Under the pieces are notes generated by a model. That model was not told the DNA's origin. It ran no database searches and saw only the letters and a list, made by a program, of their open reading frames with translations. The translations under genes and the position numbers were made by a program. Shown here piece after piece: positions 4,610-51,432 of a stretch of DNA of 54,793 bases. Source of the DNA: an uncultured bacterium (GTDB lineage: Bacteria; Patescibacteriota; Microgenomatia; UBA1400; CG1-02-47-37); NCBI GenBank assembly GCA_963980215.1, contig CAXBYZ010000004.1, forward strand, positions 1 to 54,793. Direction: 5' to 3'. Position 1 is the stretch's first letter. Each line of letters starts with the position of its first letter.

Positions 4610-5479
4610 ATGTATATAGATACGCATTGCCATCTTAACCTGAAAGATTTTGAGAGTGATTGGAGAGAAGTGGTTGAAAAAGCTAAAAAAGCTGGTGTTT
4701 CAAAGATGATTGTGGTGGGAGCTGACTTAAGTTCTAGCAAGAGAGCTATAGAAATGGCGGAAGAAGTTGAAGGTCTTTATGCTGTGGTTGGATTTCACCC
4801 ACATCACTGTAAGGGTCTTGATGATGTTGATGAGATGATGGCCTCAATAGAAAAACTTACCAAAAACAAGAAAGTGGTGGCTATTGGTGAGTGCGGGTTG
4901 GATTACCATGTGTATCAAAAATCTAAGTATGAAAAAACTCAAGTAACTGAGGATCAAAAAAAATTGCAAAAACGGGTGTTTGGGAGACAAATTCAATTAG
5001 CTAGTAAATTGAATTTACCTCTAGTAATTCACAATCGAGAAGCTCAAAGAGATATTTTGGATACAATTGACCATTTTTGTAAAAGTGATGGCAAGTACCC
5101 AAAAGGAGTGTTTCATTGTATTTCTGGCTCTAAAAAATTTGTGAAACAACTGATAGAGAGGGGTTTTTATGTAGGGGTAGACGGAAATGTTACGTATAGT
5201 AGTGAGGTTCAGGCTTTAGTAGATGAAATACCACTTGAACGATTGTTGCTTGAAACTGATTCTCCTTGGCTAACACCGGAGCCGTTACGTAGCCAACAGA
5301 AGGTTCCGAACCGTCTTTCGCTAAAGCTGCAGACCGCTGATGGTTTGGAACCAAAATTGAGAAATACTCCTATAAGTGTTAGAATCGTGGCCGAGTACTT
5401 ATCTCAAGCAAAAAATGTTAGCTTAGAAAAAATAAGAGCCTCAACGACTAAAAATGCTGAGGCTTTGTTTAATATATGA
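4610..5479 (+). CDS. tatD: TatD family hydrolase carrying a ~20-aa palindromic-element insertion
   Basis: 'IDTHCH', 'GFHPH', 'IGECGLDY', 'LLLETDSP'; extra peptide between 'PEPLR' and 'RNTP'. Confidence 0.93.
   Translation: MYIDTHCHLNLKDFESDWREVVEKAKKAGVSKMIVVGADLSSSKRAIEMAEEVEGLYAVVGFHPHHCKGLDDVDEMMASIEKLTKNKKVVAIGECGLDYHVYQKSKYEKTQVTEDQKKLQKRVFGRQIQLASKLNLPLVIHNREAQRDILDTIDHFCKSDGKYPKGVFHCISGSKKFVKQLIERGFYVGVDGNVTYSSEVQALVDEIPLERLLLETDSPWLTPEPLRSQQKVPNRLSLKLQTADGLEPKLRNTPISVRIVAEYLSQAKNVSLEKIRASTTKNAEALFNI
5300..5352 (+). repeat. family-I doublet, subtype A cargo, inside tatD
   Basis: AAGGTTCCGAAC-cgtctttcgctaaagctgcagaccgctgat-GGTTTGGAACC; homologous to 24054-24105 and 44075-44126. Confidence 0.9.
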
Positions 5480-21391: not shown

Positions 21392-22547
21392 GGGGTGGTT
21401 TTGAGGAGTTTTTTAACAAATACAGGGTGATAGCAAAGAGAGATAAGCCAAAGTAGGTAGCGAAAAGCCGGGCTGAAAATTGATCAATAAATTTGCCGAT
21501 AAAAATAGCGGTTAAAGCAAAAGGAATGATGGTAAGTAGATTAAAGGTGGATAGAGTGGTGGCACGATATTTTGACTTGGTGCTTTGATTGACAATATCT
21601 GAGGTAATATTTTTGTTGATGTGATGAATGGCGGCGGTGCCAAATAAAGCTAGACCTCCAAGATATTTTGAGAGAAAAATTAAGATGGACATGAGAGAAG
21701 CATAAGCAAGATTGAGAAGATAAAAGGCTTTGATGGCGGTAAAGCGTTTTTTAATTTTGGGAGCCAGTTGAACTGCACTGGCTGAAATAATAAAGAGTAG
21801 GCTGTAGAAGAAACCCAACTCTTTTGGTTGATAGCCAAAATCAATAATTAAAGAATCTCCTAAAAATTCGTAAGGAATAACTAATATAGAAGTGATGATT
21901 AATAAGCTAATAATTCGTTTTTTAAAGGTTTGGCTGAAAAGTTGACGAAAGCCTTGCTTGGTTTGATTAATGTAGGTGGTAAAGCTAAATTTTTGGGTGT
22001 CGATATTTGGCTCGGTAATAAATAAAGTGCCTATAAGTCCTAAAAAAAAGAAAGCTCCGGTAACAATAAATGGCAAGCCGGGACGAAGAGTATATAGAAA
22101 ACCGCCAATGATGCTGCAGATAGCCCAAGCGACTAAACTGATTGTTTGGATGTTGGCTAGAATTTTTTCATATTTTTTTTCTTTATGATCTTGTTTTAAA
22201 GAATCATAAACTAAAGCCTCGTAAGAACCGGAAAAAAGAGCAGAACCCAAAGTCATAATAACAACGCTAATAATTAGGTAAGAGTAATTTAAGGCTATAC
22301 CCATGATTGTTTGGCCAATGGCTTGGAGAAGAAAAGCAAAGGTGAGGGTGTATTTTTTACCAAAAATATCGGCGATGGCTCCAGTGGGAATTTCACTAAT
22401 AATGGAAATTATAATCCAAGTGGTTTCGATCAAGCCAATACCTTGGTAGTCGGTAAATTTTAAGTAGTATAAAAGCCAAATTCCTAGCCAAAATAAAGAG
22501 TTCCAGCAAAAGGTAAGATAGTAAGCAAGTTTAATGTTTCTTTTCAT
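21378..22547 (-). CDS. MFS transporter
   Basis: About 12 TM helices, 'EIPTGAIADIFGKK', 'YRATTLS'. Confidence 0.88.
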   Translation of the reverse strand: MKRNIKLAYYLTFCWNSLFWLGIWLLYYLKFTDYQGIGLIETTWIIISIISEIPTGAIADIFGKKYTLTFAFLLQAIGQTIMGIALNYSYLIISVVIMTLGSALFSGSYEALVYDSLKQDHKEKKYEKILANIQTISLVAWAICSIIGGFLYTLRPGLPFIVTGAFFFLGLIGTLFITEPNIDTQKFSFTTYINQTKQGFRQLFSQTFKKRIISLLIITSILVIPYEFLGDSLIIDFGYQPKELGFFYSLLFIISASAVQLAPKIKKRFTAIKAFYLLNLAYASLMSILIFLSKYLGGLALFGTAAIHHINKNITSDIVNQSTKSKYRATTLSTFNLLTIIPFALTAIFIGKFIDQFSARLFATYFGLSLFAITLYLLKNSSKPPLDNI

Positions 22548-22561
22548 AAAATGATTTTATC

Positions 22562-22584
22562 ATTTAAGGTTCGGAACCTTAAAT
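22562..22584. repeat. family-I extended singlet overlapping the stop codon of ORF 22579-24222
   Basis: ATTTAAGGTTC-G-GAACCTTAAAT, identical to 23034-23056. Confidence 0.9.
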
Positions 22585-24222
22585 AATTTTGTCATTTCTA
22601 ATAAACTTTTGTAGTTCTTTTTCTGAGTAGTGGCGGACTTTATATTTGAGGATTTTAGTGGTGGAGAGCTTGGGGTTGTGGGGGTGGACGACTATAACGG
22701 AGCCGCCAATTTGCTTCATGAGCTTTCGTTTAGCGGGAAGGTTTGGGGTGTGGGCGGAGACGGCAAGAATGTCAGGTCTAATTTTTTTTAGTAATTTTAG
22801 GTGATCAGTTGGGTTATCAAATTTTTCTGGGAGAGAGAAAATTTGATCGGCAATCCCCCACTTTTTTAGGTTTTTAATTCTGGTGTTTATGGGGTTAATG
22901 GGGCGGTTTTTGCCTTTGAGTTTTTTGACCCGGACGTCTGTTTCGAGGCCGACTAAAAGGATGTTTGGTGATACACCTCCGAGGTGCACCGCAGGTGCAA
23001 CCTCACCTCGGAGGTGGTGAGATTGGGGTGAAAATTTAAGGTTCGGAACCTTAAATTTTTTGGCGGCTTTGAGAAATTTTTTGTGTTCCTCATGAAGAAC
23101 GTCGAAGCAGCCGGTGATGAGGATTTTGGTAGACATTGAAGGTTCCGAACTAGCCTCGACATTCGTCGAGGTCGTCCCGATTAAATCGGAACTGGAAGTT
23201 CGGAACCCTACACCTTTAAGGACTGTCCTTAGCTTGGCTTTGTATTCCTTTATAACTATTTTGCCGGTGGGACGAGGGTGAAAAAAGGCAGAGTGAAGGG
23301 TGACTTTTTCGTTGGTGATTTTTTTCTTCATGTAAGCATATTGAAGCTTGAAGGCGAGGAGGTTGAGATAGTTCAATACAGAAGGTTCGGAACTAGCTCC
23401 GGTGTTCACCGGAGTTGCAAGATTACTTGCTGAAGTTCCGAACCAACGAGGCTTGGTGGTTTTATCTTCTGTTAAGAACTGTTCTTGTAGGGCGTTTTTG
23501 GGTAGTGCATTGGGTAAGAATTTTTTGACCCAAGAGTTTGTAGAGATAAATTTTTCGTAAGTTTGGTCTTTATTGTAAAGGGGTTTGATTTGGCAAACTT
23601 CGTGAGCAGTGTAGAGATTGCGGCGAGATTTAGGTATAGAAATGGATGATTCTTCTAAGAAAAGGTTGAGGCAGATGGCATTCTCGGGTCCGAGTACGGA
23701 CTCGAGTCCTTTAAGGTCCGGCCTTAAAGGAGTACCTTCAAGAACGGACCTTTTTTGAGGACGACGACGGAGGTGAAAGATTTCTAGGAGAGGAATAACC
23801 AACAAGCGAGTCAACCAAAGACGGTTGGTGGTGGTGACAATCATAAGATCGATGTCGTCGTTTTTGTCTGAGTTGTTCATGGCTAAGGCTCCGGTGACGG
23901 CAATTAATTTAACTGAAGGGATAGCACTTAAAATTTTAGATATTTTTTTAGCTTTAGTTAACTTTAATTGACTAAAGTGATGGCGAGATTTGCGGATCTT
24001 GGCAAGATGGGAGCGGTTTGGGAGGTGGTAATAATTGGAGGTTTTCCCAATCAAAGGTTCCGAACTGCCTTTCGCTTTGCTGCAGGTTGCTGAAAGTTCG
24101 GAACCAACGAGTCCTGAAAGAACGGACCTTTTATCTGAAATTAGCCATTTAATTATCTCTTTCTTGGTTAGAGGATAGTCGAAAATATCGGCATAAGCGA
24201 GAGTTTTTAAGATGGCTTCCAT
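22579..24222 (-). CDS. fusion of a Pol-beta-like nucleotidyltransferase domain and a cytidylyltransferase-like domain, with many palindromic insertions
   Basis: N-part 'AVTGALA...DDIDL'; C-part 'ITGCFDVLHEEH...LVGLETD..VKKLKG.NRP'. Confidence 0.72.
   Translation of the reverse strand: MEAILKTLAYADIFDYPLTKKEIIKWLISDKRSVLSGLVGSELSATCSKAKGSSEPLIGKTSNYYHLPNRSHLAKIRKSRHHFSQLKLTKAKKISKILSAIPSVKLIAVTGALAMNNSDKNDDIDLMIVTTTNRLWLTRLLVIPLLEIFHLRRRPQKRSVLEGTPLRPDLKGLESVLGPENAICLNLFLEESSISIPKSRRNLYTAHEVCQIKPLYNKDQTYEKFISTNSWVKKFLPNALPKNALQEQFLTEDKTTKPRWFGTSASNLATPVNTGASSEPSVLNYLNLLAFKLQYAYMKKKITNEKVTLHSAFFHPRPTGKIVIKEYKAKLRTVLKGVGFRTSSSDLIGTTSTNVEASSEPSMSTKILITGCFDVLHEEHKKFLKAAKKFKVPNLKFSPQSHHLRGEVAPAVHLGGVSPNILLVGLETDVRVKKLKGKNRPINPINTRIKNLKKWGIADQIFSLPEKFDNPTDHLKLLKKIRPDILAVSAHTPNLPAKRKLMKQIGGSVIVVHPHNPKLSTTKILKYKVRHYSEKELQKFIRNDKII
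22974..23016 (+). repeat. family-III doublet (CACCT-CCG-AGGTG ... CACCT-CGG-AGGTG)
   Basis: Same architecture as family I with a different stem; inner hairpin GCACC-gca-GGTGC; encodes HLRGEVAPAVHLGG. Confidence 0.85.
23031..23059. repeat. family-I extended singlet, intragenic
   Basis: AAAATTTAAGGTTC-G-GAACCTTAAATTTT (14-bp perfect arms); encodes KFKVPNLKF. Confidence 0.92.
23139..23207 (+). repeat. family-I doublet with two inner hairpins at the domain junction
   Basis: AAGGTTCCGAAC-ta-GCCTCGAC.attc.GTCGAGGT-cgtc-CCGATT.a.AATCGG-aactgga-AGTTCGGAACC. Confidence 0.92.
23217..23231. repeat. family-IV triloop hairpin (TAAGGA-CTG-TCCTTA); a variant AAGAA-CTG-TTCTT lies at 23474-23486
   Basis: Perfect stems with a CTG loop, each next to a family-I doublet. 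Confidence 0.55.
23382..23444 (+). repeat. family-I doublet with two inner hairpins (loop order swapped)
   Basis: AAGGTTCGGAAC-ta-GCTCCGGTG.tt.CACCGGAGT-t-GCAAG.atta.CTTGC-tga-AGTTCCGAACC. Confidence 0.92.
23684..23752 (+). repeat. family-II composite element (69 bp)
   Basis: TCGGGTCCG-agta-CGGACTCGA hairpin plus the 40-mer AAGGTCCGGCCTTAAAGGAGTACCTTCAAGAACGGACCTT (23713-23752). Confidence 0.93.
24054..24130 (+). repeat. family-I subtype A doublet (24054-24105) plus an internally deleted family-II remnant (24108-24130)
   Basis: AAGGTTCCGAAC-tgcctttcgctttgctgcaggttgctgaa-AGTTCGGAACC, then CGAGTCCT-ga-AAGAACGGACCTT. Confidence 0.9.
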
Positions 24223-24223
24223 T

Positions 24224-25732
24224 TTATTTAGCTAAGCCGTATTGGGACAGAACCTGGGTAACACCTTGAGATAAATTTTGAAGAGTGGTTTTTTCTTGAT
24301 CATCTTTTAAGTATGAGTTAATGGCGTCTTCGTAGTACTTGATTAATTTATCGTTAAGACCATTGTCGAAAGTTTTTGAAGCTAGGGGCCACGATTGAGA
24401 TGAAATCGCCTGAGACAAGACAGCTCCTAGGTAGGGATCTGATTGCAAGCTTGAGGCCATATCTTGGCGGCTGTAGGGCTCACCAAACAAACGAATTTGA
24501 GAGGCAATTGAGTACATTTTGGTTAAAACTTCTTTAGTGCTTAGGTATTTTAAGAATTCCCAAGCTTCTTTTGATTGAGTAGAGTTTTTGGAAACACCTT
24601 CGATCCAGTAGGTAGCCCAAGCTACATTAGTGCCTGGTAACTGAGGAACTGGATACATCTTAAAGTTTAGTTGAGGATTGATGGTTTTTATCTCCAAAGC
24701 TCTCCAAGATGGAGCGATAAACATGGCAACTTTGCTGGTGGCAAAGGCATAAGTGGAAGCCGGTAAAGCCGTGTCCCAGCTTTTGTCTTGGGTGGCAAAT
24801 AGGGTGTAGAACTTCATGGCAGAGACAACTTCTTCTGAGTCTGGTTGAGCTGGGTCTCCTCCATTCTGGAGGATCATTAAGCCTAAAATGTCTGAGAAGT
24901 TATCTACATTACCTGTAGTCCCTAAAGCTACTCCCCCTCGAGTTAGTTTTTTGCCAGTTTGATCAAATTGACGTAGCTTGAAAGCGGTTTGGCGAAGGTT
25001 GTTCCAAGTAGTAGGCACTTTTAGATCTGGTGAGGTGGCCAAGATATCTTCGTTGACGTATAGAGAGAGGGCATCAAATTCTAGGGGGATGCCGTAGTAA
25101 CGACCGGCAGAGAAAACATCTTTTTTGACTACTGGGTAGAAAGTGGCGTCAAATTCGTTGCCTGAGTAGATGGCTTCAGGCATGGGTGAGAGGTCTGCTT
25201 TGAGCATTGGAAGCCAAGTGTTGTGGTATCTAAAAATGTCTGGGCCGTCACCTTTGGCTAGAGCAGATTGAAGACGCTCACGATAGTCTTTATGAGATTG
25301 CCTGACGTACTGGATATTGACGTTTGGATGGGCAGCTTGATAGTCGCTAATTATTTGGGAGATAGAAGATTCGGGTTCCCAAAGACCCCAGTACTTTAGA
25401 GAGATAATTTCTGGTTCTTTGTTTTTTGAAAATTGAGGAATAATAACCTTGAAGACTAATAGGGCGGCGAAAATGACAATACCCAGACCAATAAGGAGGG
25501 GTAAAAATCTTTTGAAGATTGGATCAATAACTTGAGCTGGCTCACCTGGCTCTGGAAAAGATGGTGGGGTCTCTTCTGGTGGTGGAACAGAATCTTCTTC
25601 TGTTGGAGTGTCTGGAAGAGGTGGAGAAACAGGAAATGGTGGAGATGCTGACTCTGCAGAATCATTAACTGGAGGAGTTGGAGGGGGTGTTGAAGTTTCT
25701 GCAGATGGTAGGACAGTATTTGAATCATTCAT
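24224..25732 (-). CDS. extracellular solute-binding protein (sugar ABC type) with Pro-rich cytoplasmic N-terminus and TM anchor
   Basis: 'LKYWGLWE', 'GDGPDIF', 'YYGIPL', 'AWEFLKYL'. Confidence 0.85.
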   Translation of the reverse strand: MNDSNTVLPSAETSTPPPTPPVNDSAESASPPFPVSPPLPDTPTEEDSVPPPEETPPSFPEPGEPAQVIDPIFKRFLPLLIGLGIVIFAALLVFKVIIPQFSKNKEPEIISLKYWGLWEPESSISQIISDYQAAHPNVNIQYVRQSHKDYRERLQSALAKGDGPDIFRYHNTWLPMLKADLSPMPEAIYSGNEFDATFYPVVKKDVFSAGRYYGIPLEFDALSLYVNEDILATSPDLKVPTTWNNLRQTAFKLRQFDQTGKKLTRGGVALGTTGNVDNFSDILGLMILQNGGDPAQPDSEEVVSAMKFYTLFATQDKSWDTALPASTYAFATSKVAMFIAPSWRALEIKTINPQLNFKMYPVPQLPGTNVAWATYWIEGVSKNSTQSKEAWEFLKYLSTKEVLTKMYSIASQIRLFGEPYSRQDMASSLQSDPYLGAVLSQAISSQSWPLASKTFDNGLNDKLIKYYEDAINSYLKDDQEKTTLQNLSQGVTQVLSQYGLAK

Positions 25733-25763
25733 ATGTGTGTTATTATCTTAACAAAGACCTCTT

Positions 25764-27503
25764 ATGATAAGCAACATATATAAAAAAACAGTAGTAATAT
25801 TATTGGGGATTTTAGCTGGAATTACAGGGATTATGTTGTTGTATGGAGTTTCTTATTCCCAAAAGATATATCCCTTTTTATATGTTGGAAAAACTAATGT
25901 ATCTAACTTGAGTATTGATGAGGCGGAAAAAATATTGAGAGAGAAAATTCCCGAAGGGTTACAAGTGCTTGATGTTTGGTTTGGAAATCAGAGCTTTGCG
26001 GTGGAAGCGAGTGAGCTGGAGTATGATCCAAAATTGACGGCGGATAAAGCTTATTTGGTGGGGAGAGAAGGAAAGTTTCTTGATAATTTTAAAACTAAGT
26101 GGAGCTTGTGGTTTAGCAAAAAATCTTTAAGTTTTGAGTATAAGCTTAATAGTGAGGTGTTGGAGGAGCAGGTTGATTTATTGATATCTCAAGTGTCGGC
26201 GCCACCGATTTACTACTCTCTTTCTCAAACTCCGGAGGGTCAGATAGTGGTTGTGCCTGGGAAGAGTGGAAGAGTGGTTAATAAGAATAAGCTGATGAAA
26301 GATATTGATAAAGGACTTAGTAACTTGGATTTTTCTAAAATAGTAGTTGAGGCGAGTTTGATAGAAGTTGTTGTGAGTCAAGAAGAGTTGGAAAAAGCAC
26401 AAAGGAGAGGAGAGTTATTGAAAGAGAGAGTTTTGAGTTTGAAGTATGGAGATGGTGAGAAAAAAATTGAAGGTCAGGGCTTGATTGATTTGATTGATTT
26501 TAAGGGTGGTTTTGATGAAGAAAAAGTTAAAAAATTGATGGGATTGGTGAGTGAGGAAGTAAACCGAGAGCCTCAAAATGCTGTTTTTAGATTTGAAGGT
26601 GGAAGAGTGGTTGAGTTTAAGCCGGCTATAGATGGTCTTTTGGTGAATGAAGAAATTTCTATTATTAAGGTGGTTGATGGTCTTTCCAGGCTAGAAACTC
26701 TTAACTGTAAAGAAGTTTGCGAAACAATTATTGTTAACCTAGAAGTAGAGAAGTCTGCTCCAGAAGTTAGAATTAGTGAAGTTAATAATTTAGGAATTGT
26801 TGAGTTAATTGGAAAGGGTGAGTCAACCTTTCATGGATCGATACCCTCTAGAGAACATAATGTGGCTCTAACTGCTTATAAGTTAGATGGGGTATTAATT
26901 AAACCAGGAGAAGTGTTTTCGTTTAATGGAAGTGTGGGTGATATTTCGGCAGCAACTGGATACCAAAGTGCTTACATAATTAAAGATGGAAGAACTGTTT
27001 TGGGTGATGGAGGTGGAGTTTGCCAAGATTCGACAACAATGTTTAGAGCAGCACTTGATGCTGGATTGCCAATTATTGAAAGACACCCTCATGCATATAG
27101 GGTGAGTTATTATGAGCAAGGGTCGCCGGTGGGGATTGATGCTACGATTTACTCTCCTTCTACTGATTTCAAGTTTTTGAATGATACGCCGGCACATATA
27201 TTAATTCAGACAAATGTGAATACTGTGAGCAATTATTTAAAAATTGAAATTTATGGAACAAGCGATGGGAGAGTAGCAACAATTAGCAATACTAGATTGT
27301 GGGACCAGTCTCCCCCGCCAGATCCCAAGTACGAAGATACCCCGTCACTGGCTACTGGAGTAGTAAAACAGGTAGACTGGGCAGCTTGGGGAGGAAAAGC
27401 GGCTTTTGATTGGAGGGTGGTTAGAGGAGGTGAAGTTCTACAAGAAAAAACTTTTTACTCAAGCTATAGACCTTGGCAAGCAGTGTACTTAAGAGGAATA
27501 TGA
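25764..27503 (+). CDS. VanW family protein with peptidoglycan-binding domains
   Basis: 'GEVFSFN', 'GGGVCQDSTT', 'ERHPHAY', 'DATIY'. Confidence 0.9.
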   Translation: MISNIYKKTVVILLGILAGITGIMLLYGVSYSQKIYPFLYVGKTNVSNLSIDEAEKILREKIPEGLQVLDVWFGNQSFAVEASELEYDPKLTADKAYLVGREGKFLDNFKTKWSLWFSKKSLSFEYKLNSEVLEEQVDLLISQVSAPPIYYSLSQTPEGQIVVVPGKSGRVVNKNKLMKDIDKGLSNLDFSKIVVEASLIEVVVSQEELEKAQRRGELLKERVLSLKYGDGEKKIEGQGLIDLIDFKGGFDEEKVKKLMGLVSEEVNREPQNAVFRFEGGRVVEFKPAIDGLLVNEEISIIKVVDGLSRLETLNCKEVCETIIVNLEVEKSAPEVRISEVNNLGIVELIGKGESTFHGSIPSREHNVALTAYKLDGVLIKPGEVFSFNGSVGDISAATGYQSAYIIKDGRTVLGDGGGVCQDSTTMFRAALDAGLPIIERHPHAYRVSYYEQGSPVGIDATIYSPSTDFKFLNDTPAHILIQTNVNTVSNYLKIEIYGTSDGRVATISNTRLWDQSPPPDPKYEDTPSLATGVVKQVDWAAWGGKAAFDWRVVRGGEVLQEKTFYSSYRPWQAVYLRGI

Positions 27504-29029
27504 AAATGTTGCGCCCTCAAAGGTCCGGCCTTAAAGGAGTACCTTCAAGAACGGACCTTACTATGATAATAGTATTGGGTTTGTTAGGGTTACTATTAGT
27601 TCAGTGGTTGACTCCCAATATTTGGGGGGCAGATGGGTATTACCATATTCAACTGGCGGAGATGTTTAAGAATAGTGGTTTTTTGAAAACTTTGCCTCAA
27701 GCTAGATTTTCTCATTTTGTTGATAGATTTTCTAATAAAGATTGGCTCTATCACCTAGTGCTAGTACCCTTTACTGGTTTTAATAACCTTTTTGTGGGAG
27801 CAAAGTGGGCAGCTTTTGTGTTTGGAGGAATTTTATATAGTAGTTTGTTGATGGTTGCTAGTTACTATGTTTCTAGTGTTGGTTTGATAATTGTAGGGGT
27901 GTCCCCTTTTCTATCTAGTCATTTTATTCAGACTTTGTCTCGACCCAGACCGATGGTGCTGGGAATTACTCTTGGTCTATGGGTGGTTCACTTTTTGATT
28001 CAGAAAAAAAACAAGCAAGTTTTTTGGGGGTCTTTGGTTTACTCGATGATGCATATTACTGCGCCTTTGGTGATTGGATATGGAGTGGTGGTGAGTTTCT
28101 GGAGATGGTTGTTTAAAGAAAATTCCAGGTACGGAACCTGGAATTTAGTGGGGATGGCTGTTTTGGGAGTTTTGGGCGGGTTTATTCTACATCCTAATTT
28201 TCCTAATAACTGGTTTTATTTTTACTTAAACGGAATCTTGGTGCCGTTTTTCGCAGCCCGCTGGGGGGTTTTGGAGTTGGGGGCAGAGTTTTTTCCGATG
28301 ACCACCTTGGATTATTTTAAAAATTATCCCTTAATAGTTTTGGGATTGTTGTTTATGGTAGTAGTGGTTTTGGTGGAGAGACCAAAAGTAAAGAGTGAGA
28401 CTCAGGTAATGTTTTTGTTGACAAGTGTGTTTGTGGTGATGGGGATGATGAGTCAGAGATATATTGCTCATGGCTATCCTTTTATGGTTTTGAGTTTAGC
28501 TATGTTTGTTAGTGATTGGCACAGAGATAAGGAGTTTAAGAAATTTTTGAAGAAGATTGAGGGGGCAGTTAACTTAATTATGGTAAGTGGACTAATTATA
28601 GTGATATTGCTGATATTTAGTGGTTTTAAGAGAATGGTGGCAACGGCTAAGGGAACCAGCGTGATGAATGGCCACTACGAAGAGATGGGTGGGTGGCTAA
28701 AGGATAATGTGCCTGAAGGTGAGTTAATCTTTCATTCTAACTGGTCTGACTCCCAGTACTTTATTGGAGTTAATCCCAAAAATGATTATTTTGTAACTAT
28801 GGATCCTGTTTATATGTGGCATAAAAATCAAGAGGTGTATAAACTTTACCGAGCGGTGGCGTTTGGGCAAATCGAGGATCCTTATAAAGTTTTGAAAGAA
28901 GGGTTTAAAGTAAATTATGGTTATGTGGGGAAGAATTATTTTTCCGCTTTGGTTGATCAAATTAACAATGATGAGCGGTTTGAGGTGGTTAAAGAAGACC
29001 AATTTGGATTAATTTTTAAGTTAAAGTAA
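27500..29029 (+). CDS. GT-C-like polytopic membrane protein
   Basis: 'GADGYYHIQLA', 'WLYHLVL', many TM helices; start is ATG 27500 or 27563. Confidence 0.65.
   Translation: MKMLRPQRSGLKGVPSRTDLTMIIVLGLLGLLLVQWLTPNIWGADGYYHIQLAEMFKNSGFLKTLPQARFSHFVDRFSNKDWLYHLVLVPFTGFNNLFVGAKWAAFVFGGILYSSLLMVASYYVSSVGLIIVGVSPFLSSHFIQTLSRPRPMVLGITLGLWVVHFLIQKKNKQVFWGSLVYSMMHITAPLVIGYGVVVSFWRWLFKENSRYGTWNLVGMAVLGVLGGFILHPNFPNNWFYFYLNGILVPFFAARWGVLELGAEFFPMTTLDYFKNYPLIVLGLLFMVVVVLVERPKVKSETQVMFLLTSVFVVMGMMSQRYIAHGYPFMVLSLAMFVSDWHRDKEFKKFLKKIEGAVNLIMVSGLIIVILLIFSGFKRMVATAKGTSVMNGHYEEMGGWLKDNVPEGELIFHSNWSDSQYFIGVNPKNDYFVTMDPVYMWHKNQEVYKLYRAVAFGQIEDPYKVLKEGFKVNYGYVGKNYFSALVDQINNDERFEVVKEDQFGLIFKLK
27520..27559 (+). 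repeat. family-II 40-mer
   Basis: Identical to 23713-23752; reads RSGLKGVPSRTDL in the host frame. Confidence 0.95.
28120..28146. repeat. degenerate family-I extended singlet, intragenic
   Basis: AAATTCCAGGT-acgga-ACCTGGAATTT (core one mismatch from GGTTCGGAACC). Confidence 0.75.
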
Positions 29030-29046
29030 AATATAAATATCGTATA

Positions 29047-29085
29047 TTGACATATATACATAAGTATGTTAGTATGTATATATGT
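29047..29085 (+). promoter_or_regulatory. vapBC promoter/operator
   Basis: TTGACA at 29047; perfect 13-bp inverted repeat ACATATATACATA (29050-29062) / TATGTATATATGT (29073-29085) covering the ATG. Confidence 0.78.
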
Positions 29086-29330
29086 TAACTAGAACCACTG
29101 TGACTTTGCCAGATTATTTAATTGAAGAGGCTAAATACTATGCCGTTTCTCATAAGACTAATTTGAGTCAATTAGTAAGAGAATCTTTAGCAGATAGAAT
29201 ACAGCTAAATTCTTCTTCTAGTCGAAATTCCATATTAAAATTAGCCGGATCACTTAATCTTGGTGGCAAACAACCCCCAAGCCGAAGTGAGCTGTATGAG
29301 AAACATCTTAAGCAAAAGCTTGGCCTTTGA
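29082..29330 (+). CDS. ribbon-helix-helix antitoxin (VapB-like)
   Basis: 'RTTVTLPDYLIEEAK...NLSQLVRESL'. Confidence 0.8.
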   Translation: MLTRTTVTLPDYLIEEAKYYAVSHKTNLSQLVRESLADRIQLNSSSSRNSILKLAGSLNLGGKQPPSRSELYEKHLKQKLGL

Positions 29331-29733
29331 TACAAATATATTAGTTTACTTGTTGGATAAAAAATCTGTTTTTCATGAAGAAACAGTAAATGCAGTTTTA
29401 AAAATTGAGTTAGATAAATTTAAACTAGTGATAGCTCAACAAAGTATTGTGGAGTTGGTTTCTGTGTTGACTGGTCATTATGATTTATCGTTGAAGGAAG
29501 CTTCAAATAAGGTAAGTCAAATTATTGATTCTAAAATTTCAATTGTTTCTCCTTTGCCTCAAACGACAAAAACATATCTTGAGTTGTGTAGAATAAATAA
29601 AAAATCAAAAAATCATTTTGATTTATTTCTGGCAGCTACTTTAATAGATAATAAAATTAATCAAATAATGACTAATGATAAATTTGGATTTAAGAATATT
29701 GAACAACTTAAAGTAATATTAATAAAAAAATAA
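29296..29733 (+). CDS. PIN-domain toxin (VapC-like)
   Basis: 'FDTNILVY', 'VEL', 'FDLFLAAT', 'TND'; likely ATG at 29296. Confidence 0.85.
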   Translation: MRNILSKSLAFDTNILVYLLDKKSVFHEETVNAVLKIELDKFKLVIAQQSIVELVSVLTGHYDLSLKEASNKVSQIIDSKISIVSPLPQTTKTYLELCRINKKSKNHFDLFLAATLIDNKINQIMTNDKFGFKNIEQLKVILIKK

Positions 29734-29739
29734 AAAAAT

Positions 29740-30738
29740 CTAAATTAAGTGTTTGGGTGGGGTTTTGTTGAAGTGGGCAAAAGCTTGTTTGGTAGCAACC
29801 CTGCCTTTGGAGGTGCGTTTTAAGAAACCGATTTGAAGCAAGTAGGGCTCGATAACCTCTTCGAGGGTATCTTTTTCTTCGGCGATGGTGGCGGCTAGAG
29901 TGTCTAAGCCGACTGGTCCGCCCTGATGTTTGTTAATCAAGGCTTTTAACAATCTCTGATCGTTGGCGTCAAGTCCCATGGCGTCAACTTCTAAAAGCTT
30001 CAAGGACTCGTTTAAAACAGATTCAGTAATAGCTGACTCCCCTTTTATTTGAGCCATGTCTCGACATCGTTTTAAGAGTTTTAGGGCGATTCTGGGTGTG
30101 CCTCGGGAACGAAGAGCTAGTTTTTTGGCAACGGATCCATCAATAGTAATTTTGATTTTGGTGGCGGCGTTTTTGATGATTTGAACTAAGTTATCTGGAT
30201 TGTAAAAAGTAAAACGGTGAGTGATGCCAAAACGATCTCTTAAGGGGGCGGCAATTAAGCCAATTCTGGTGGTGGCTCCGACTAGGGTAAATTTAGGAAG
30301 CTCCAGCTGAAGAGTTCTAGCTGATGGTCCTTGGCCGACGACAATGTCTAAACGATAGTCTTCCATAGCTGGGTAGAGAGTTTCCTCAACCACTTTGCTG
30401 AGCCGATGAATTTCGTCAACGAAAAAAATATCACCGTCGTTTAGGTTGGTAAGGATCGAGGCCAAGTCCCCGGCTCTCTCGATAGCCGGACCACTAGAGG
30501 TTCTGATGTTAACTTTCATCTCTTTGGCAATGATGTGAGCCAGGGTGGTCTTGCCTAGTCCAGGAGGGCCATAAAGCAAGATGTGTTCTGAAGCTTCTTT
30601 TCTTTTTTTTGCGGCTGATAAGGCAACGGTGAGAGCTTTTTTGATAGTAGATTGACCGATGAACTCATCCCAAGAGTCAGCTCTTAAATTTTTAAAAGTT
30701 TTTTCTGGTAATGACGATGGTTTTTTTGGTGAAGTCAT
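29740..30738 (-). CDS. ruvB: Holliday junction helicase RuvB
   Basis: 'GPPGLGKTTLA', 'DEIHRL', 'PLRDRFG', 'EPYL'. Confidence 0.98.
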   Translation of the reverse strand: MTSPKKPSSLPEKTFKNLRADSWDEFIGQSTIKKALTVALSAAKKRKEASEHILLYGPPGLGKTTLAHIIAKEMKVNIRTSSGPAIERAGDLASILTNLNDGDIFFVDEIHRLSKVVEETLYPAMEDYRLDIVVGQGPSARTLQLELPKFTLVGATTRIGLIAAPLRDRFGITHRFTFYNPDNLVQIIKNAATKIKITIDGSVAKKLALRSRGTPRIALKLLKRCRDMAQIKGESAITESVLNESLKLLEVDAMGLDANDQRLLKALINKHQGGPVGLDTLAATIAEEKDTLEEVIEPYLLQIGFLKRTSKGRVATKQAFAHFNKTPPKHLI

Positions 30739-31307
30739 TTTTGACCTAAATACTTGATAGCTTTTTTGATTTTATCTTCAATTTTGTCTTCCGGATTAGT
30801 AGATTGATTAAGGGCTTGATGCGCTTGGTGTTTGCTAAAACCAAGGCTGATTAGAGCTTGGATGGTTTCTGATGTTTCTGATGATTCGCCGAGGAGATCT
30901 AGATCATTTAAATCCCCTAGTTTGGGTTTGAGTTCGATGATGATTTTTTGAGCGTTCTTTTTACCCAGTCGCTTAACGCTGGTAAAGAAGTCAACATCGG
31001 CTTTGGAAACAGCAGTGGTAATGGCTGGTACCCCTTTATCGATTAAAGTAATGGCGGTTTTGGGGCCAATGCCGGAAATGTTAATTAGGAGTTTAAATAG
31101 GTAAAGATCTTCTTTGGAGGCAAAGCCATAAAGGTCAAGGGCGTCTTCTTTGACGTGGGTGTGAATGAAGAGGGTGGTGATTTTTTCTTTGATGATTTTT
31201 TGCTGAAGAGATGGAGGGGTAAATACTAGGTAGCCGACACCATTGACATCAATAATAATTGAGTCTTGGTCAAATGTTTTTGGTTTACCTGTTAGTTGGG
31301 CGATCAT
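30735..31307 (-). CDS. ruvA: Holliday junction protein RuvA
   Basis: 'MIAQLTG', 'VNGVGY', 'ISGIGPK', 'ALISLGF'. Confidence 0.96.
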   Translation of the reverse strand: MIAQLTGKPKTFDQDSIIIDVNGVGYLVFTPPSLQQKIIKEKITTLFIHTHVKEDALDLYGFASKEDLYLFKLLINISGIGPKTAITLIDKGVPAITTAVSKADVDFFTSVKRLGKKNAQKIIIELKPKLGDLNDLDLLGESSETSETIQALISLGFSKHQAHQALNQSTNPEDKIEDKIKKAIKYLGQK

Positions 31308-31319
31308 ATATTGTAGATA

Positions 31320-31823
31320 TTATACCTTAAGGTTCGGAACCAAGTGACCTTTCATTTTGTGAGTGAAGGCGTGAGTGAGGGCGACGGCGAGGGCGTCGGC
31401 GGTGTCGTCTGGTTTAGGGATGGTGGTTAATTTTAAGATAGTTTTTGTCATTTGTTGGACTTGGTTTTTGTCGGCCCGACCATAGCCAGTGACGGCCATT
31501 TTTATTTGGAGAGGTGAGTAGGAAAAACAAGCAAGCTGATTAATCTCTCCAGCTAGTAAGATGACTCCCCTAGCTTGACCGACTTTGATAATGGTGGTTT
31601 GATTTTTGAAAAAGAAGAGATCTTCGACAGCCAAGGCGTCTGGTTTGGTGGTTTTGATAATTTTATTAAAGCTATCAAAGAGGTCTTTAAGACGAGCAGA
31701 GTCTGACTTACCCGGTTTGGTTTCTAAACAACCGTAGTTCCCGACTGTTTGGTTGCCAGATTGATCGTTAATAATTCCCCAGCCAAGACGGGCACTGCCT
31801 GGATCGACGCCTAAAATTTTCAT
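31320..31823 (-). CDS. ruvC: crossover junction endonuclease RuvC
   Basis: 'ILGVDPG', 'AVE', 'DDTADALAVA'. Confidence 0.96.
   Translation of the reverse strand: MKILGVDPGSARLGWGIINDQSGNQTVGNYGCLETKPGKSDSARLKDLFDSFNKIIKTTKPDALAVEDLFFFKNQTTIIKVGQARGVILLAGEINQLACFSYSPLQIKMAVTGYGRADKNQVQQMTKTILKLTTIPKPDDTADALAVALTHAFTHKMKGHLVPNLKV
31329..31341. repeat. family-I singlet forming the RuvC C-terminal tail (LVPNLKV*)
   Basis: AAGGTTCGGAACC. Confidence 0.75.
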
Positions 31824-31843
31824 AGTTGTATTATAATACCTTT

Positions 31844-34075
31844 ATGGATAAAACTTATAAAGCATCAGATCATGAGGGGAAGATTTACCAGAAATGGGAG
31901 GAGTCGGGGGCGTTTGCACCTAGTGTAAACGGGAAACCATTTACAATTATTATGCCGCCGCCGAATGCTAATGACCCGCTTCATGTGGGACATGCCATGT
32001 TTATCTCAGTTGAGGATATCTTTATTCGATATAAGAGAATGCAAGGGTTTAGCACTTTGTGGTTGCCGGGAACAGACCACGCTGGGATAGAAACACAGTT
32101 TGTTTTTGAGAAGAAATTAAAAAAACAGGATAAAAGTCGATTTGACTATGACAGGGAGACTTTGTATCAAATGATTTGGGATTATGTGCAAGAAAACTCT
32201 GAGGTGGCAATTAATCAAATGAAGAAGCTTGGAGCTAGTGCTGACTGGAAGAGGAAGAAGTTTTCCTTGGATAAAGATGTTGTTGAGAAAGTTCTTGATA
32301 CTTTTATTCAGTTACATAAAGATGGGCTTATTTACAGGGACAACAAACTGGTTAATTTCTGTACTAGGTGTGGGACTGCATTTTCTAACTTGGAAGTTGT
32401 TCATACTGAGAAGAAATCTCCACTTTACTACATGAAGTATGGGCCATTTGTGTTAGCAACAACAAGGCCAGAAACTAAGTTTGGTGATACGGCAGTAGCC
32501 GTTCACCCCAAAGATAAGAGATATGCTAAATGGATTGGTAAGGAGATAGAAGTTGAGGGGTTGCTGGGTAAATTTATGATAAAAGTAGTGGCGGATGAGT
32601 ATGTGGATCCTAAGTTTGGAACTGGAGTGGTGAAGATAACTCCGGCACATGACTTTAATGACTTTGAAGTGGGTAAGAGACATAAGTTGGAAGTTAAGCA
32701 GGTGATTGGTTTTGATGGAAGATTAAATAAACACTGTGGAGAGTATGCTGGCTTAACGGTGTTTTCGGCCAGAGAAAAAGTGGTAGAGGGTTTGGAGAAA
32801 AAAGGTTTGATGGAAAAAATTGACAAAGATTATGTTCACTCCGTGGGGAGTTGTTATCGATGTGGGCGAGCAATTGAACCTCTTCCCTTACCTCAGTTTT
32901 TTATTAAAGTGAAGAATTTAACCAAGACCGTGCTTAAAGCTTTGAAAGAAAAAAAGGTGAAAGTTTATGGTTCGGGACATGAGAAAATATTAAAACACTG
33001 GCTAGAAAACTTAAATGATTGGAATATTAGTCGACAGATAGTTTGGGGGATTCGAATTCCGGTGTGGTACTGCAAGAAGATTGAAGGTTCCGAACTAGCC
33101 CAATCAAAGATTGGGTTGGCTAAAGCCAGAAGTTCGGAACCCTGTTATGTTGTTAGTAAAGATAAGCCAAACAAATGTAGTAAGTGTGGTTCAACAACGT
33201 TTGCACGGGATGAGGATACTTTTGACACATGGTTTTCTTCTGCACAGTGGCCGGTGGTGACTTTAAAAACAGGCAAAAAATCTGATTTTGAGAAGTTTTA
33301 TCCAACAGATTTGATGGAGACTGGATATGATATTCTTCCCTTCTGGGTGATGAGAATGTTGATGATGGGATTGTACTCAACTGGAAGAGTACCTTTTAAA
33401 AGTGTTTATCTTCATGGAATGGTGAGAGATGGTAGAGGACAAAAGATGAGTAAGAGTAAGGGTAATGTTATTAATCCGGTGGAGATTGTGGATAAGTATG
33501 GGGCCGATGCTCTAAGAATGGCCTTAGTGATGAGTAGTACGGCTGGAAATGATAAGTCTGTGGGGGATGAGACAATTAGAGGAATGAGAAATTTAACTAA
33601 TAAGATTTGGAATGCGGCGAGGTTTGTGATGGAGTTTTTGCCGGAGACGGCTAATAATCAAGGTTCCGAAGAACCTTTTTCGGGTTCGAGTACGAACTCG
33701 AGTCCTCAAAGGTCTGGCCTTAAAGGAGTACCTTCAAGAACAGACCTTAGTCAACAAAGTTCGAAACCATCTAGTTTTGAAGGAGATAAAGAGTTTGAGG
33801 AAGAGATTTCCAAGATTGTAAATGAGGTGACCAAACAGCTTGAAGACTACAAGTTGGGGTTGGCGGCGGAAACGGTGTATAACCAGTTTTGGCATTGGTT
33901 TTGTGATGAGTCCATCGAGTCGGCTAAAGAAGGTAAAGTTAGCTACCCTGTTTTGATGAATGGATTAAAGACATTTTTGAAACTTCTTCATCCTTTTGTA
34001 CCATTTGTAACAGAAGCAGTTTGGCAAGAACTTGGTGAAGAACAATTATTGATTACAAGTAAATGGCCTATTTAA
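31844..34075 (+). CDS. valS: valine--tRNA ligase (no C-terminal coiled coil; two element-derived insertions)
   Basis: 'PPPN', 'HVGH', 'GTDHAGI', 'WNISRQ', 'DTWFSS', 'KMSKS'; likely start MDKTY at 31844. Confidence 0.96.
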   Translation: MDKTYKASDHEGKIYQKWEESGAFAPSVNGKPFTIIMPPPNANDPLHVGHAMFISVEDIFIRYKRMQGFSTLWLPGTDHAGIETQFVFEKKLKKQDKSRFDYDRETLYQMIWDYVQENSEVAINQMKKLGASADWKRKKFSLDKDVVEKVLDTFIQLHKDGLIYRDNKLVNFCTRCGTAFSNLEVVHTEKKSPLYYMKYGPFVLATTRPETKFGDTAVAVHPKDKRYAKWIGKEIEVEGLLGKFMIKVVADEYVDPKFGTGVVKITPAHDFNDFEVGKRHKLEVKQVIGFDGRLNKHCGEYAGLTVFSAREKVVEGLEKKGLMEKIDKDYVHSVGSCYRCGRAIEPLPLPQFFIKVKNLTKTVLKALKEKKVKVYGSGHEKILKHWLENLNDWNISRQIVWGIRIPVWYCKKIEGSELAQSKIGLAKARSSEPCYVVSKDKPNKCSKCGSTTFARDEDTFDTWFSSAQWPVVTLKTGKKSDFEKFYPTDLMETGYDILPFWVMRMLMMGLYSTGRVPFKSVYLHGMVRDGRGQKMSKSKGNVINPVEIVDKYGADALRMALVMSSTAGNDKSVGDETIRGMRNLTNKIWNAARFVMEFLPETANNQGSEEPFSGSSTNSSPQRSGLKGVPSRTDLSQQSSKPSSFEGDKEFEEEISKIVNEVTKQLEDYKLGLAAETVYNQFWHWFCDESIESAKEGKVSYPVLMNGLKTFLKLLHPFVPFVTEAVWQELGEEQLLITSKWPI
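33084..33141 (+). repeat. family-I doublet with two inner hairpins inside valS
   Basis: AAGGTTCCGAAC-ta-GCCCAATC.aaa.GATTGGGT-TGGCT.aa.AGCCA-ga-AGTTCGGAACC. Confidence 0.93.
33660..33768 (+). repeat. nested element in valS: degenerate family-I arms enclosing a family-II composite (33680-33748)
   Basis: AAGGTTCCGAA...TCGGGTTCG-agta-CGAACTCGA...AAGGTCTGGCCTTAAAGGAGTACCTTCAAGAACAGACCTT...AAGTTCGAAACC. Confidence 0.92.
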
Positions 34076-34602
34076 AAGCGTTAAGTAAGAGCTTGTATAG
34101 ACCAATAAAACCGGTGGTGAGTCCCCTGCTAAAAAAAATTACTTTAACTAAGGTTTTTAGTTTGTTGGTGTTAATTGGGGCTGGGGGCTTGTTGGTTAAT
34201 GGCTTTTCAATTAAAGCTCAAGAGAGAGCTTCAAGGTGGCCTTGGTCAAGCAAGTCTCATAGTCAGATGGCTTTGGCTTGGTTTGAAGCGGGAGATGAAG
34301 ATATGGCTCTTAATGAGTTGGAGGTGGCAAATAAGCTATTAATTGTAAAAACAAGAAGGGCAAAAAATAGCTTAAAGGAAGCAAATGATAAAGTTATGGA
34401 ACCGGAGAAAATCCGGGAAGAGATTGTGGATTGGGAGAAAATTCTTGGTGAGATGCCTTCCTTTAAGGATGTGTTTTTGCGATTAGCAGTATTGAATTAT
34501 CAGCTTTACAACGAAACTCAAGCTAGGGATTATTTTGAGAAAGCGGAGTATTTGGATCCAAATAATGAAGAAATTTTAGAAATCAAAAAAATTATTTTTT
34601 AG
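34063..34602 (+). CDS. membrane-anchored TPR protein
   Basis: TM segment, then 'VFLRLAVLNYQL...ARDYFEKAEYLDPNN'. Confidence 0.72.
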   Translation: MAYLKALSKSLYRPIKPVVSPLLKKITLTKVFSLLVLIGAGGLLVNGFSIKAQERASRWPWSSKSHSQMALAWFEAGDEDMALNELEVANKLLIVKTRRAKNSLKEANDKVMEPEKIREEIVDWEKILGEMPSFKDVFLRLAVLNYQLYNETQARDYFEKAEYLDPNNEEILEIKKIIF

Positions 34603-42942: not shown

Positions 42943-44067
42943 ATGAAAGTTTCGTTATTGCAAGAGAATTTAGCCAAAGGGGTGATGATGGTTGGTAGGA
43001 TGGTAGCAAGTAAGGCGCAGTTGCCGGTTTTATCTAATATTTTGCTGGTAACAGAGTCTGGAAAGTTAAGAGTGTCAGCAACAAATTTAGAAACAGGAAT
43101 GAATGTGTGGATTTCCTCAAAGATAGATGAGCCTGGAAAGATTACGGTGCCTGCTAAGATATTTATGGAGCTGGTGAGCTCTTTACCTAAAGAGACAGTT
43201 ATTCTTGAGACTGAGGGAGAGAAGATTAAGGTGACTTGCGGCAAGTTTAAAGCAACGGTTAATGGGATATTGGCTGAAGAGTTTCCTGAGGTACCAAGTC
43301 TAAAAAGTGGGAGTAAAAAAGGAGTTGAGTCTTTAAAGATAAAAACAAGCGTTTTTGAGAGCTTTATCGATCAAGTGGCTATGGCAGCTGGAGTGGATGA
43401 AGCAAGGCCAATTTTTACTGGAGTGAAGTGGGAGATAGGTAAAAACATTAAGCTAGCAGCTACAGATGGTTACCGTTTGAGCGTAAAGAAGATTAAGGGG
43501 GTGTCATGGTCTGGAGAGAAAAAAGAGATGATAGTGCCGGCTAAGGCATTAATGGAGATAACCAAGATCGTTTCTAAGGTAGATGATGATGAAGTGTTAG
43601 TAGCGGTGACGGATAAAGATAAGCAGTTAATACTGGCTCTTAAAGATGTTGAGGTGGTAACTAGGTTGATTGAGGGAGAGTTCCCTGATTTTGAGAAGAT
43701 AATTCCAACAACAGCAAGTAGTACGGTTGAACTTGATAGAGAGGAGTTGACTCAGGCGGTGAGGGCGGTGGCCATCTTTGCTAGAGATAGTGCCAACATT
43801 GTTAAGTTTAAGGTGACGGATAAATATTTATTGATTTCGGCAAATGCCCCACAAGTGGGAGAGAACGAGGTCGGAGTGAGTGTTGAAAGAAAGGGAGAAG
43901 AGACAGAGATAGCTTTTAATAGTAGATATTTATTAGAAATTTTATCTTTGGTGAAGGCTGAGAGATTAACTTTATCGATGTCTGGGCCGTTAAATCCTGG
44001 TGTTTTTAGGGAAGTTCCTGACCAAGACTTTTTACATATTATTATGCCGGTGAGGGTGCAGGGGTAG
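42943..44067 (+). CDS. dnaN: DNA polymerase III beta clamp
   Basis: 'PVLSNILL', 'ATNLE', 'ATDGYRL', 'LIEGEFP', 'IIMPVR'; AAGGAG RBS. Confidence 0.97.
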   Translation: MKVSLLQENLAKGVMMVGRMVASKAQLPVLSNILLVTESGKLRVSATNLETGMNVWISSKIDEPGKITVPAKIFMELVSSLPKETVILETEGEKIKVTCGKFKATVNGILAEEFPEVPSLKSGSKKGVESLKIKTSVFESFIDQVAMAAGVDEARPIFTGVKWEIGKNIKLAATDGYRLSVKKIKGVSWSGEKKEMIVPAKALMEITKIVSKVDDDEVLVAVTDKDKQLILALKDVEVVTRLIEGEFPDFEKIIPTTASSTVELDREELTQAVRAVAIFARDSANIVKFKVTDKYLLISANAPQVGENEVGVSVERKGEETEIAFNSRYLLEILSLVKAERLTLSMSGPLNPGVFREVPDQDFLHIIMPVRVQG

Positions 44068-51405: not shown

Positions 51406-51432
51406 ACATGAAGGTTACGAACCTTCATGTAG
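51406..51432 (+). repeat. RAYT-flanking palindrome (3' of the gene)
   Basis: ACATGAAGGTT-ACG-AACCTTCATGT-AG; identical to 52124-52150. Confidence 0.95.

Follow-up and report, generated by a model that had tools for sequence, protein, structure and literature searches.

The subject of this analysis is family II, a short palindromic repeat present in three copies within 54,793 nucleotides of DNA from an uncultured bacterium (contig CAXBYZ010000004.1 of assembly GCA_963980215.1, hereafter the window; GTDB lineage Patescibacteriota, Microgenomatia, UBA1400, CG1-02-47-37). Family II is read here, at a probability of roughly 0.68, as a non-autonomous palindromic element resembling the REPINs (doublets of repetitive extragenic palindromes, or REPs, that form hairpins), mobilised in trans by a REP-associated tyrosine transposase (RAYT), surviving where it keeps the reading frame of its host gene and maintained in its fold. 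The source genome, G000, in which the window is contig C4, comprises 820,410 bases in 45 contigs at 39% G+C and is 99.97% complete; G001 and G002 are its two congeners.

The element occurs in the window as a 69-nt composite and as a bare 40-mer (Table 1). The 40-mers at 23713-23752 and 27520-27559 are identical, as originally predicted, and that at 33709-33748, in the valyl-tRNA synthetase gene valS, has two mismatches; none of 100 shuffled controls gave a match. The mismatches, C>T at position 7 and G>A at position 34, are pairing partners within the 8-bp outer stem AAGGTCCG/CGGACCTT. Between the 69-mers beginning at 23684 and 33680, 6 of 69 positions are unlike: two are this outer-stem pair, two a C>T/G>A pair in the upstream stem GGGTCCG/CGGACTC, and the remaining two a TT>CA change in the unpaired linker, so that the count of four compensatory differences in six given at the outset is upheld. 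As single-stranded DNA, both 69-mers are predicted to fold into the same two hairpins, at -19.7 and -17.9 kcal/mol (z-scores of -4.2 and -5.8, with 0 of 200 shuffles equally good); z-scores overall range from -3.8 to -5.8, that of the 40-mer being -4.6. Hairpin 1 has a 9-bp stem closed by the loop AGTA and is followed by a 7-nt linker and the 40-nt long hairpin, in which the outer stem gives way to a 2x2 internal loop (GC/AA) and an inner stem of 8 bp containing a single A.C mismatch, again with an AGTA loop. This long hairpin arises from two inverted, mutually pairing arms, AAGGTCCGGCCTT and AAGAACGGACCTT, with a small spacer hairpin between them, and each arm resembles, in its short stem and 5-nt TCCGN loop, the REPs beside the RAYT genes of this lineage. 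The second, upstream hairpin is present in many copies. Rfam covariance models gave no match at E<=1 on either strand of positions 22500-34200, and neither a DNA-uptake sequence nor a restriction-site palindrome suits a unit of 40-69 nt with covarying stems. In many copies (L010, L012, L013, L016, L017), the 3' end is also partly repeated, once or twice (AGAACGGACCTT, AGAGCGGACCTT), within a few bases on the downstream side; these pieces appear to be remnants of earlier copies or products of slippage.

Covariation was evaluated on 27 of the 28 copies in the three congeneric genomes (23 distinct sequences), one copy truncated by a contig end being excluded. In this alignment, 93.6% of stem cells are paired, compared with 88.9% after shuffling, and 9 of 25 pairs have changed on both sides, a number reached in none of 500 shuffles (mean 3.6). 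All five measures of covariation lie above all 500 shuffles, figures that overstate independence, as the shuffle control is blind to relatedness; pairing falls to 10-55% when the stem partners are slid out of register. A case free of relatedness is provided by one orthologous site, at which hairpin 1 reads AGGTGGC/GCCACTT in the source genome (contig C17) and AGGTGAC/GTCACTT in G002. Among further compensatory changes, the inner stem AAGG/CCTT has become AAGC/GCTT (contig C10) or AAGT/ACTT (G002), and hairpin 1 has become GGGTTTG/CAAACTC or the entirely different AGGTGAC/GTCACTT. The irregularities themselves, namely the GC/AA internal loop, the A.C mismatch and a G.T pair, hardly vary among the 23 distinct sequences of the genus. 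In a wider family of 61 copies from 10 genomes, all 42 distinct sequences are predicted to form one long hairpin; their interiors vary in sequence and length, and self-complementarity exceeds that of their own shuffles in 40 of the 42 (p<=0.05 in 21). The structure-preserving evolution proposed in the original prediction is supported, and the orthologous C17 site and these 42 sequences extend the support. Most likely, it is the folded shape that is kept, fixed irregularities and all, and the stems accordingly change through paired substitutions. Compensatory changes across the REPIN hairpin are common in the account of Bertels and Rainey (2011; PMC3116915), and the fixed irregularities of family II fit the requirement of an Escherichia coli RAYT for a bulge in the REP stem, as described in the available text of Corneloup et al. 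(2021; PMC8266576).

Searches with the 40-mer and the 69-mer, as had been recommended, returned 11 copies in the source genome, three variants with altered interiors included, and 10 and 7 in G001 and G002; base pairs changed on both sides are more numerous among them than in the shuffles, with some changes left uncompensated. Among 40 relatives, matches to the 40-mer within 3 mismatches are found solely in the two congeneric genomes. Arms of the type seen in this genus were recovered in 30 stretches when one genome per species was scanned across the whole collection, and the holders are labelled Patescibacteria group bacterium or Candidatus Beckwithbacteria bacterium, barring two metagenome-assembled genomes. 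These two (L240-L246, L251, L257, L262, L265) are labelled uncultured Pseudomonadales, a label that looks wrong. The looser pattern AAGGTCCG-N14-32-CGGACCTT occurs in 10 of the 151 genomes of the order; by kinship, 8 of the 13 remaining members of the family contain it, as does 1 of 137 genomes outside the family, and a reversed-pattern control matched one genome.

Family II lies mainly within genes, and it is that these genes are left unbroken that stands out. The 69-mer can be read without a stop in one frame per orientation, the bare 40-mer in two. Seven of the 11 copies in the source genome lie deep in long open frames, three lie near N-termini (16-30 codons from the start of the frame) and one is intergenic. 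The deep hosts comprise a 547-aa cytidylyltransferase-like open reading frame (ORF), valS, frames of 624, 435 and 251 aa, a RadA-like gene with the insert directly after the Walker A motif, and a paralogue of the ATPase beta-like gene. The first of these (22579-24222, minus strand) holds copy 1 of the window in antisense, where it reads RSVLEGTPLRPDLKGLESVLGPE. Copy 27520 is one of the three near-start cases: the upstream ORF (25764-27503) ends at 27503 and the next ATG, at 27563, opens a membrane-protein ORF, so that the copy, though in an open frame, probably occupies a leader or intergenic spacer, the classical position of an intergenic REP. In the congeners, 14 of 17 copies are in open frames and 3 are not, and of 34 copies in other genera, 24 are bordered on either side by 40 or more open codons. 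With 10 of 11 copies of the source genome in open frames, the extragenic location by which REPs and REPINs are defined does not describe family II; the coding fraction of this genome is 0.919 by a crude ORF call, and at about 92% coding the element neither avoids nor seeks genes. By orientation, the 28 copies divide into 18 sense, 4 antisense, 2 ambiguous and 4 outside ORFs. Splicing and translational bypass were rejected as explanations, since the copies keep an open frame, which an element that is removed would not need. The 547-aa ORF is dense in palindromes (22562, 23034, 23135, 23378, 23433, 23684, 24054), and its known domain is solely C-terminal, the cytidylyltransferase-like region at residues 420-526.

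The insert in valS corresponds to residues ~604-645 of the source protein, and its absence from 12 of 12 relatives, both congeners included, identifies it as an insertion. It lies in the linker between the catalytic domain, which extends to residue 576, and the anticodon-binding domain, which begins at residue 654. The copy had been described as sitting within family-I arms, family I being a second palindromic repeat of this genome (see below). Arm-like pieces do flank it, but that on the left is also a complete small hairpin, so that enclosure by arms is one of two readings. Other small palindromic inserts, likewise in frame, occupy the same two loops in the valS genes of relatives, and one of them, from another genus, is a relative of family II with a compensated inner stem. 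The second of these variable loops carries in the source genome an in-frame palindromic insert of family-I type, IEGSELAQSKIGLAKARSSEP (33080-33160, residues ~419-440). A metagenome scan with the C-terminal part of valS returned distant relatives alone, at 33-43% identity.

Comparison of orthologous sites adds gain and loss to this picture. Among the three species, flanks are 68-80% identical and copies of the element 95-100%. The G001 copy at site 27520 is identical at 40 of 40 positions between flanks of 78.7% identity, and the copy that G000 and G002 have in common in the RadA-like gene has 2 changes in 69 against 74.7% in the flank, with a second copy ~110 nt downstream there. The C17 copy is likewise common to G000 and G002, the latter carrying an additional 59-nt module. 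Sites occupied in a congener and empty in the source genome are found at C4:35326/35327, C4:31835/31843 and C22:5933. Six further sites hold a different palindromic element in the source genome: a ~70-nt element with arms AAGGTGACTCCTT/AAGGAGTCACCTT on C36, family-I doublets on C22, C14, C24 and C25, and another hairpin on C20. Such exchange of families at one site could reflect permissive loops, targeting of existing hairpins or in-place replacement. The source genome has two ATPase beta-like genes (C2:57988-59442 and C26:2175-2414), and in the divergent paralogue a family-II variant separates the Walker A helix from the GVGER strand. This insert is common to the source genome and a genome of another genus, at 38 of 39 identical positions between flanks matching at 171/264 and 148/242 (61-65%), and is missing from the congener G001 and from G011, a pattern to which loss, independent gain or transfer could each have led.

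The claim of recent mobility that was drawn from the identical copies is therefore only partly sustained. Empty sites and the absence of the valS insert from 12 relatives speak for movement; copy identity is not a safe sign of recency, because orthologous copies stay identical despite diverged flanks (40/40 against 79%, 38/39 against 61-65%), and may instead reflect conservation or homogenisation. The 20 matching sequencing runs that were listed are marine or seawater metagenomes, available as contigs, with no RNA data set among those listed, and four were compared with the window. These contigs end inside repeats, and the joints among those listed are repeat-induced jumps with short sides.

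Enzymes of the appropriate kind are abundant. Genes with the Y1 transposase domain PF01797 (Y1_Tnp), all above the cut-off, number 16 in G000, 11 in G001 and 18 in G002; five other relatives have between 1 and 9 RAYT-like genes each. All 16 genes of the source genome are flanked on one or both sides by their own, distinct REP, an arrangement also seen in the congeners and in five further genomes. The RAYT-specific REPs are themselves rare in the genome, with 1-15 exact matches over both strands. The window holds one RAYT-like gene, which scores 35 bits against PF01797 (cut-off 23), carries NHFH and YIH motifs and has REPs on both sides; at 37.6 bits against the NCBIfam RAYT equivalog NF047646 it remains under the cut-off of 80 and is a divergent relative of that REP-associated tyrosine transposase. 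It provides context for the mechanism and is not the cognate enzyme of family II. A REP core AAGGACGGACCTT, 1-2 mismatches from the family-II arms, lies beside RAYT genes of G004 and G009, and a related core, AAGGACGGACCC, occurs in G001. In the source genome, the REPs of the RAYT genes on C8 and C31 have loops of the same kind (TCGGA, TCCGG) and different stems; judged by these loops, either enzyme could be put forward as the mobiliser, a suggestion and nothing firmer. TnpB/Cas12f-like genes (PF07282) are absent from G000 and G002, and G001 has one. A separate observation concerns the RAYT-like genes themselves, as in 52 of 71, from nine genomes, the ORF itself contains the core of the REP that flanks it, at two conserved positions (around residues 50-65 and 150-157). 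Internal and flanking REPs vary in step among paralogues and species, TGSGPV, for instance, accompanying GGGTCCGGCCC and TGSDPV accompanying GGGTCAGACCC; the available text of Di Nocera et al. (2013; PMC3733652) makes no mention of such cores.

A mechanism can be proposed on this basis, in which a RAYT as mobiliser, a single-stranded intermediate and translation of the inserts are what we infer. Once single-stranded, family-II DNA would take the shape of one long, imperfect hairpin, which a RAYT-type Y1 (HUH) transposase would cut and rejoin in trans during replication; part of the turnover may consist of replacement of, or insertion into, hairpins already at the site. Since about 92% of the genome is coding, most copies would land in genes, and those that survive would keep the frame, their translation adding 13-24 hydrophilic residues to linkers and loops of the proteins that contain them. 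Maintenance of the fold and its irregularities would account for the paired substitutions of the stems.

Several observations weigh against this reading. Family II is an orphan in the source genome and its mobiliser a guess: the second RAYT gene flanked by AAGGTCCGGCCTT that the original prediction had anticipated was not found, as none of the 16, 11 and 18 RAYT loci of G000, G001 and G002 is flanked by family II, and the RAYTs with near-matching REP cores have no close orthologue in G000. Neither a GTAG nor a CGTC tag lies beside either hairpin in the 27-sequence alignment (GTAG/CTAC is carried by several other REPs of this genome), and neither a precise-excision joint nor a transposition intermediate was found among the contigs of the four runs, which break within the repeat. 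Compensation is incomplete, with pair 10-17 unpaired in 4 of 18 distinct sequences (e.g. GGGTTCG with CAAACTC), an uncompensated C>A in the C24 copy and 6.4% of stem cells unpaired overall. The degree to which conservation exceeds that of the flanks would suit a host function no less than a selfish element, a bias toward the sense strand is not predicted by a pure DNA parasite without an added assumption, and translation of the inserts is suggested by their open frames alone.

The conservation and the strand bias speak for an element selected by the host for its DNA or mRNA structure. Family II would in that case act in cis, slowing ribosomes between domains, stabilising mRNA or binding a host protein, with its spread and the RAYTs secondary. 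Identity far above the flanks at the 27520, RadA-like and ATPase sites extends to synonymous positions, the sense bias amounts to 18 against 4, the G.T(U) pair is kept on the plus strand in 17 of 18 distinct sequences, and inserts fall at domain boundaries (the valS linker; after the Walker A helix in the RadA-like and ATPase beta-like proteins). A function of this kind is nonetheless difficult to reconcile with copies in both orientations, several frames, unrelated genes and intergenic DNA, with close relatives that do without the insert (valS in 12 of 12; the ATPase paralogue in G001 and G011), or with the occupation of one site by different families in sister species, and no Rfam match points to it; this explanation is regarded as unlikely, albeit with enough in its favour to be kept in view. 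Slightly less probable still is spread and homogenisation by recombination or gene conversion, with template-switch repair of the stems and without a dedicated transposase, which would make the compensation a mutational by-product. Quasi-palindrome correction is a known mutational route, and the lack of a cognate RAYT in three genomes, the tandem partial 3'-end duplications beside many copies, a 27-nt internal direct repeat that could account for internally deleted versions, and the replacement of one element by another with common AAGG...CCTT ends at the same sites would all follow. Perfecting of palindromes should, however, erase the very loop, mismatch and G.T pair that are near-invariant in the 23 distinct sequences, and new copies have appeared at sites without earlier homology, as the empty site C4:35326/35327 shows.

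Two other explanations carry far less weight. That a selected peptide module is reused across proteins is suggested by the recurrence of the peptide FSGSSTNSSPQRSGLKGVPSRTDL in many of them, but copies on the opposite strand or in other frames give unrelated peptides (RSVLEGTPLRPD..., QGPASKLRFKNGP), some copies are intergenic, synonymous sites are conserved, and the covariation tracks base pairing rather than codons, making this a very improbable account. An assembly artefact as the source of the identical copies is scarcely credible: contigs from public runs do break inside the 40-mer, and none of those listed cleanly bridges the 23713 or the 27520 copy, but the element is present in independent assemblies of at least 10 genomes, contigs of four runs from at least three studies pass from unique flanking sequence into the repeat, conserved proteins (valS, RadA-like, ATPase beta-like) run on in frame to either side of it, and orthologous copies occupy the same sites elsewhere.

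An extension of the REPIN-like reading may be mentioned as a doubtful one, tentatively held. The hairpins and the many RAYT-like enzymes could form a long-lived, vertically inherited system that is tolerated or used by the host, in which RAYTs swap cassettes in place at intragenic docking sites. This would explain the different families found per site, the nested palindromes, identity above that of the flanks and the REP inside the RAYT ORF (52/71). Were it true, cassettes would be cut and replaced inside coding sequence, and the surface loops of essential proteins would be remodelled in this way.

The commonest 10-mer of the source genome, GGTTCCGAAC/GTTCGGAACC (81 occurrences), forms doublets around a spacer of ~30 nt, designated family I, with members in the window at 5293-5352, 24054-24105 and 44067-44126; 61 of these 81 fall within ORFs as crudely called, and the 10-mer reads GSEP in either orientation. 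Family I is the REP of the RAYT-like gene on C14. The segment 24108-24130 had been taken for an internally deleted family-II unit abutting another doublet, and this is corroborated, since 24118-24130 is exactly the last 13 bases of family II, the tail adjoins a family-I doublet, and the same composite recurs at G000:C22:912-980. From its sequence, the tail as a whole (24106-24130) reads as a family-II unit minus the interior of the hairpin. A third family of ~70 nt, with the arms found on C36, is often beside family II (G000:C36:1364-1495; L009, L014 and L015 in G001), and one copy has the compensated arms AAGGACAGTCCTT/AAGGACTGTCCTT. Of the proposed preference for inserting in or near existing elements, the link to such elements is supported: an 18-nt perfect palindrome, a multiple of three that keeps the frame, is nested in the internal loop of the RadA-like copy of G002 (L019), family-I arms precede several family-II copies, and six orthologous sites are taken by another palindromic element in the source genome, but repeated hits on a few permissive loops, or in-place replacement, would leave the same picture as a true preference.

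Table 1. Palindromic elements and the RAYT-like gene discussed in the text (positions in the window)
Feature	Position	Strand	Remarks
Family-II 69-mer, copy 1	23684..23752	+	Hairpin 1 23684-23705; linker 23706-23712; 40-nt long hairpin 23713-23752
Family-I doublet	24054..24105	+	Arms AAGGTTCCGAAC (24054-24065) and GTTCGGAACC (24096-24105); 30-nt spacer; inside 547-aa ORF
Tail AACGAGTCCTGAAAGAACGGACCTT	24106..24130	+	Linker-like piece CGAGTCCTGA and exact last 13 nt of family II (24118-24130); adjoins family-I doublet
Family-II 40-mer alone, copy 2	27520..27559	+	
Family-I-like hairpin or left arm AAGGTTCCGAAGAACCTT	33660..33677	+	Directly upstream of valS copy
Family-II 69-mer, copy 3	33680..33748	+	Sense, in frame in valS (31826-34075); peptide SGSSTNSSPQRSGLKGVPSRTDL
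Family-I right-arm-like AAAGTTCGAAACC	33756..33768	+	Downstream of valS copy; one mismatch to GTTCGGAACC
RAYT-like Y1 (HUH) transposase gene, 208 aa	51436..52062	-	Own REP ACATGAAGGTTACGAACCTTCATGT at 51406-51431, 52078-52103 and 52124-52148; inside ORF 51848-51873

Family II is most readily compared with the REPs and REPINs that accompany RAYTs, also named TnpA-REP (Bertels and Rainey 2011, PMC3116915; Corneloup et al. 2021, PMC8266576, as far as the available text of these papers extends). The likeness comprises short palindromic repeats, two inverted REP-like arms that form a long hairpin with their spacer, compensatory variation of that spacer, higher-order clusters, many Y1 genes each with its own REP, and persistence across related species. 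Family II differs from REPINs in lacking a RAYT of its own in three genomes and a GTAG tag, in often having a second, upstream hairpin, and in being mostly intragenic and in frame, where REPINs are extragenic. The host differs as well: it has 16 RAYT-like genes in 0.82 Mb, whereas RAYTs are typically single-copy (10.1101/119735, in the text available), and the RAYT-like enzyme of the window falls short of the NCBIfam cut-off. The literature, in the portions available, regards REPIN-RAYT systems as long-lived and vertically inherited, a view that would also accommodate conservation above the flanks and the sense bias.

Intragenic REPs are described in several species, many of them in replication or repair genes, and are mentioned alongside the Rickettsia palindromic elements (RPEs) in the accessible part of Di Nocera et al. 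(2013; PMC3733652). Family II resembles both in placing palindromes in frame in known proteins, often those of replication and repair or housekeeping, with 20-30 residues added and sometimes twice per ORF. It differs in that intragenic copies are a minority in the species described there, whereas here 10 of 11 are in open frames, following coding density, and neither REPs nor RPEs of this kind have any sequence relationship to family II. The IS200/IS605 insertion sequences, whose ends, like their miniature derivatives, the palindrome-associated transposable elements, are mobilised by a Y1 TnpA in the form of single-stranded hairpins, have the same enzyme family (HUH/Y1; PF01797), and imperfect hairpins with fixed irregularities serve there as recognition elements; for family II, in contrast, no element-borne transposase was found, TnpB is absent from G000 and no target tetranucleotide is established. 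MITEs (miniature inverted-repeat transposable elements), such as those of Correia/NEMIS type, are likewise small, non-autonomous, bounded by terminal inverted repeats and sometimes co-transcribed or translated. Family II has inverted termini, but it is one 40-69-nt hairpin, shorter than most MITEs, its associated enzymes are of Y1 rather than DDE type, and no target-site duplication is legible in the empty-site alignments, which contain multi-element inserts and diverged flanks.

To our knowledge, work on REP/REPIN-RAYT systems has been confined almost entirely to Proteobacteria, in which the repeats lie outside genes, and we know of no transposase associated with RPEs, in contrast to the wealth of RAYT-like genes in the source genome. 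Full-text literature searches returned nothing that joins RAYTs with the candidate phyla radiation, or Patescibacteria with repetitive extragenic palindromes. The practical consequence concerns annotation, as the inserts lengthen conserved proteins and short-read assemblies break at every copy. Compensatory changes in REPINs (PMC3116915) and intragenic REPs (PMC3733652) are already published, to judge from the available text of both; what differs here is a mostly intragenic, orphan element of REPIN type, in a lineage without such a system in searchable papers. A 0.82-Mb genome with little intergenic space, 16 RAYT-like genes and repeats mainly in reading frames, including those of valS and the RadA-like and ATPase beta-like proteins, thus offers a natural test case for the tolerance of mobile hairpins by streamlined genomes, for the persistence of REPINs through selection on their fold, and for in-place replacement by Y1 transposases.

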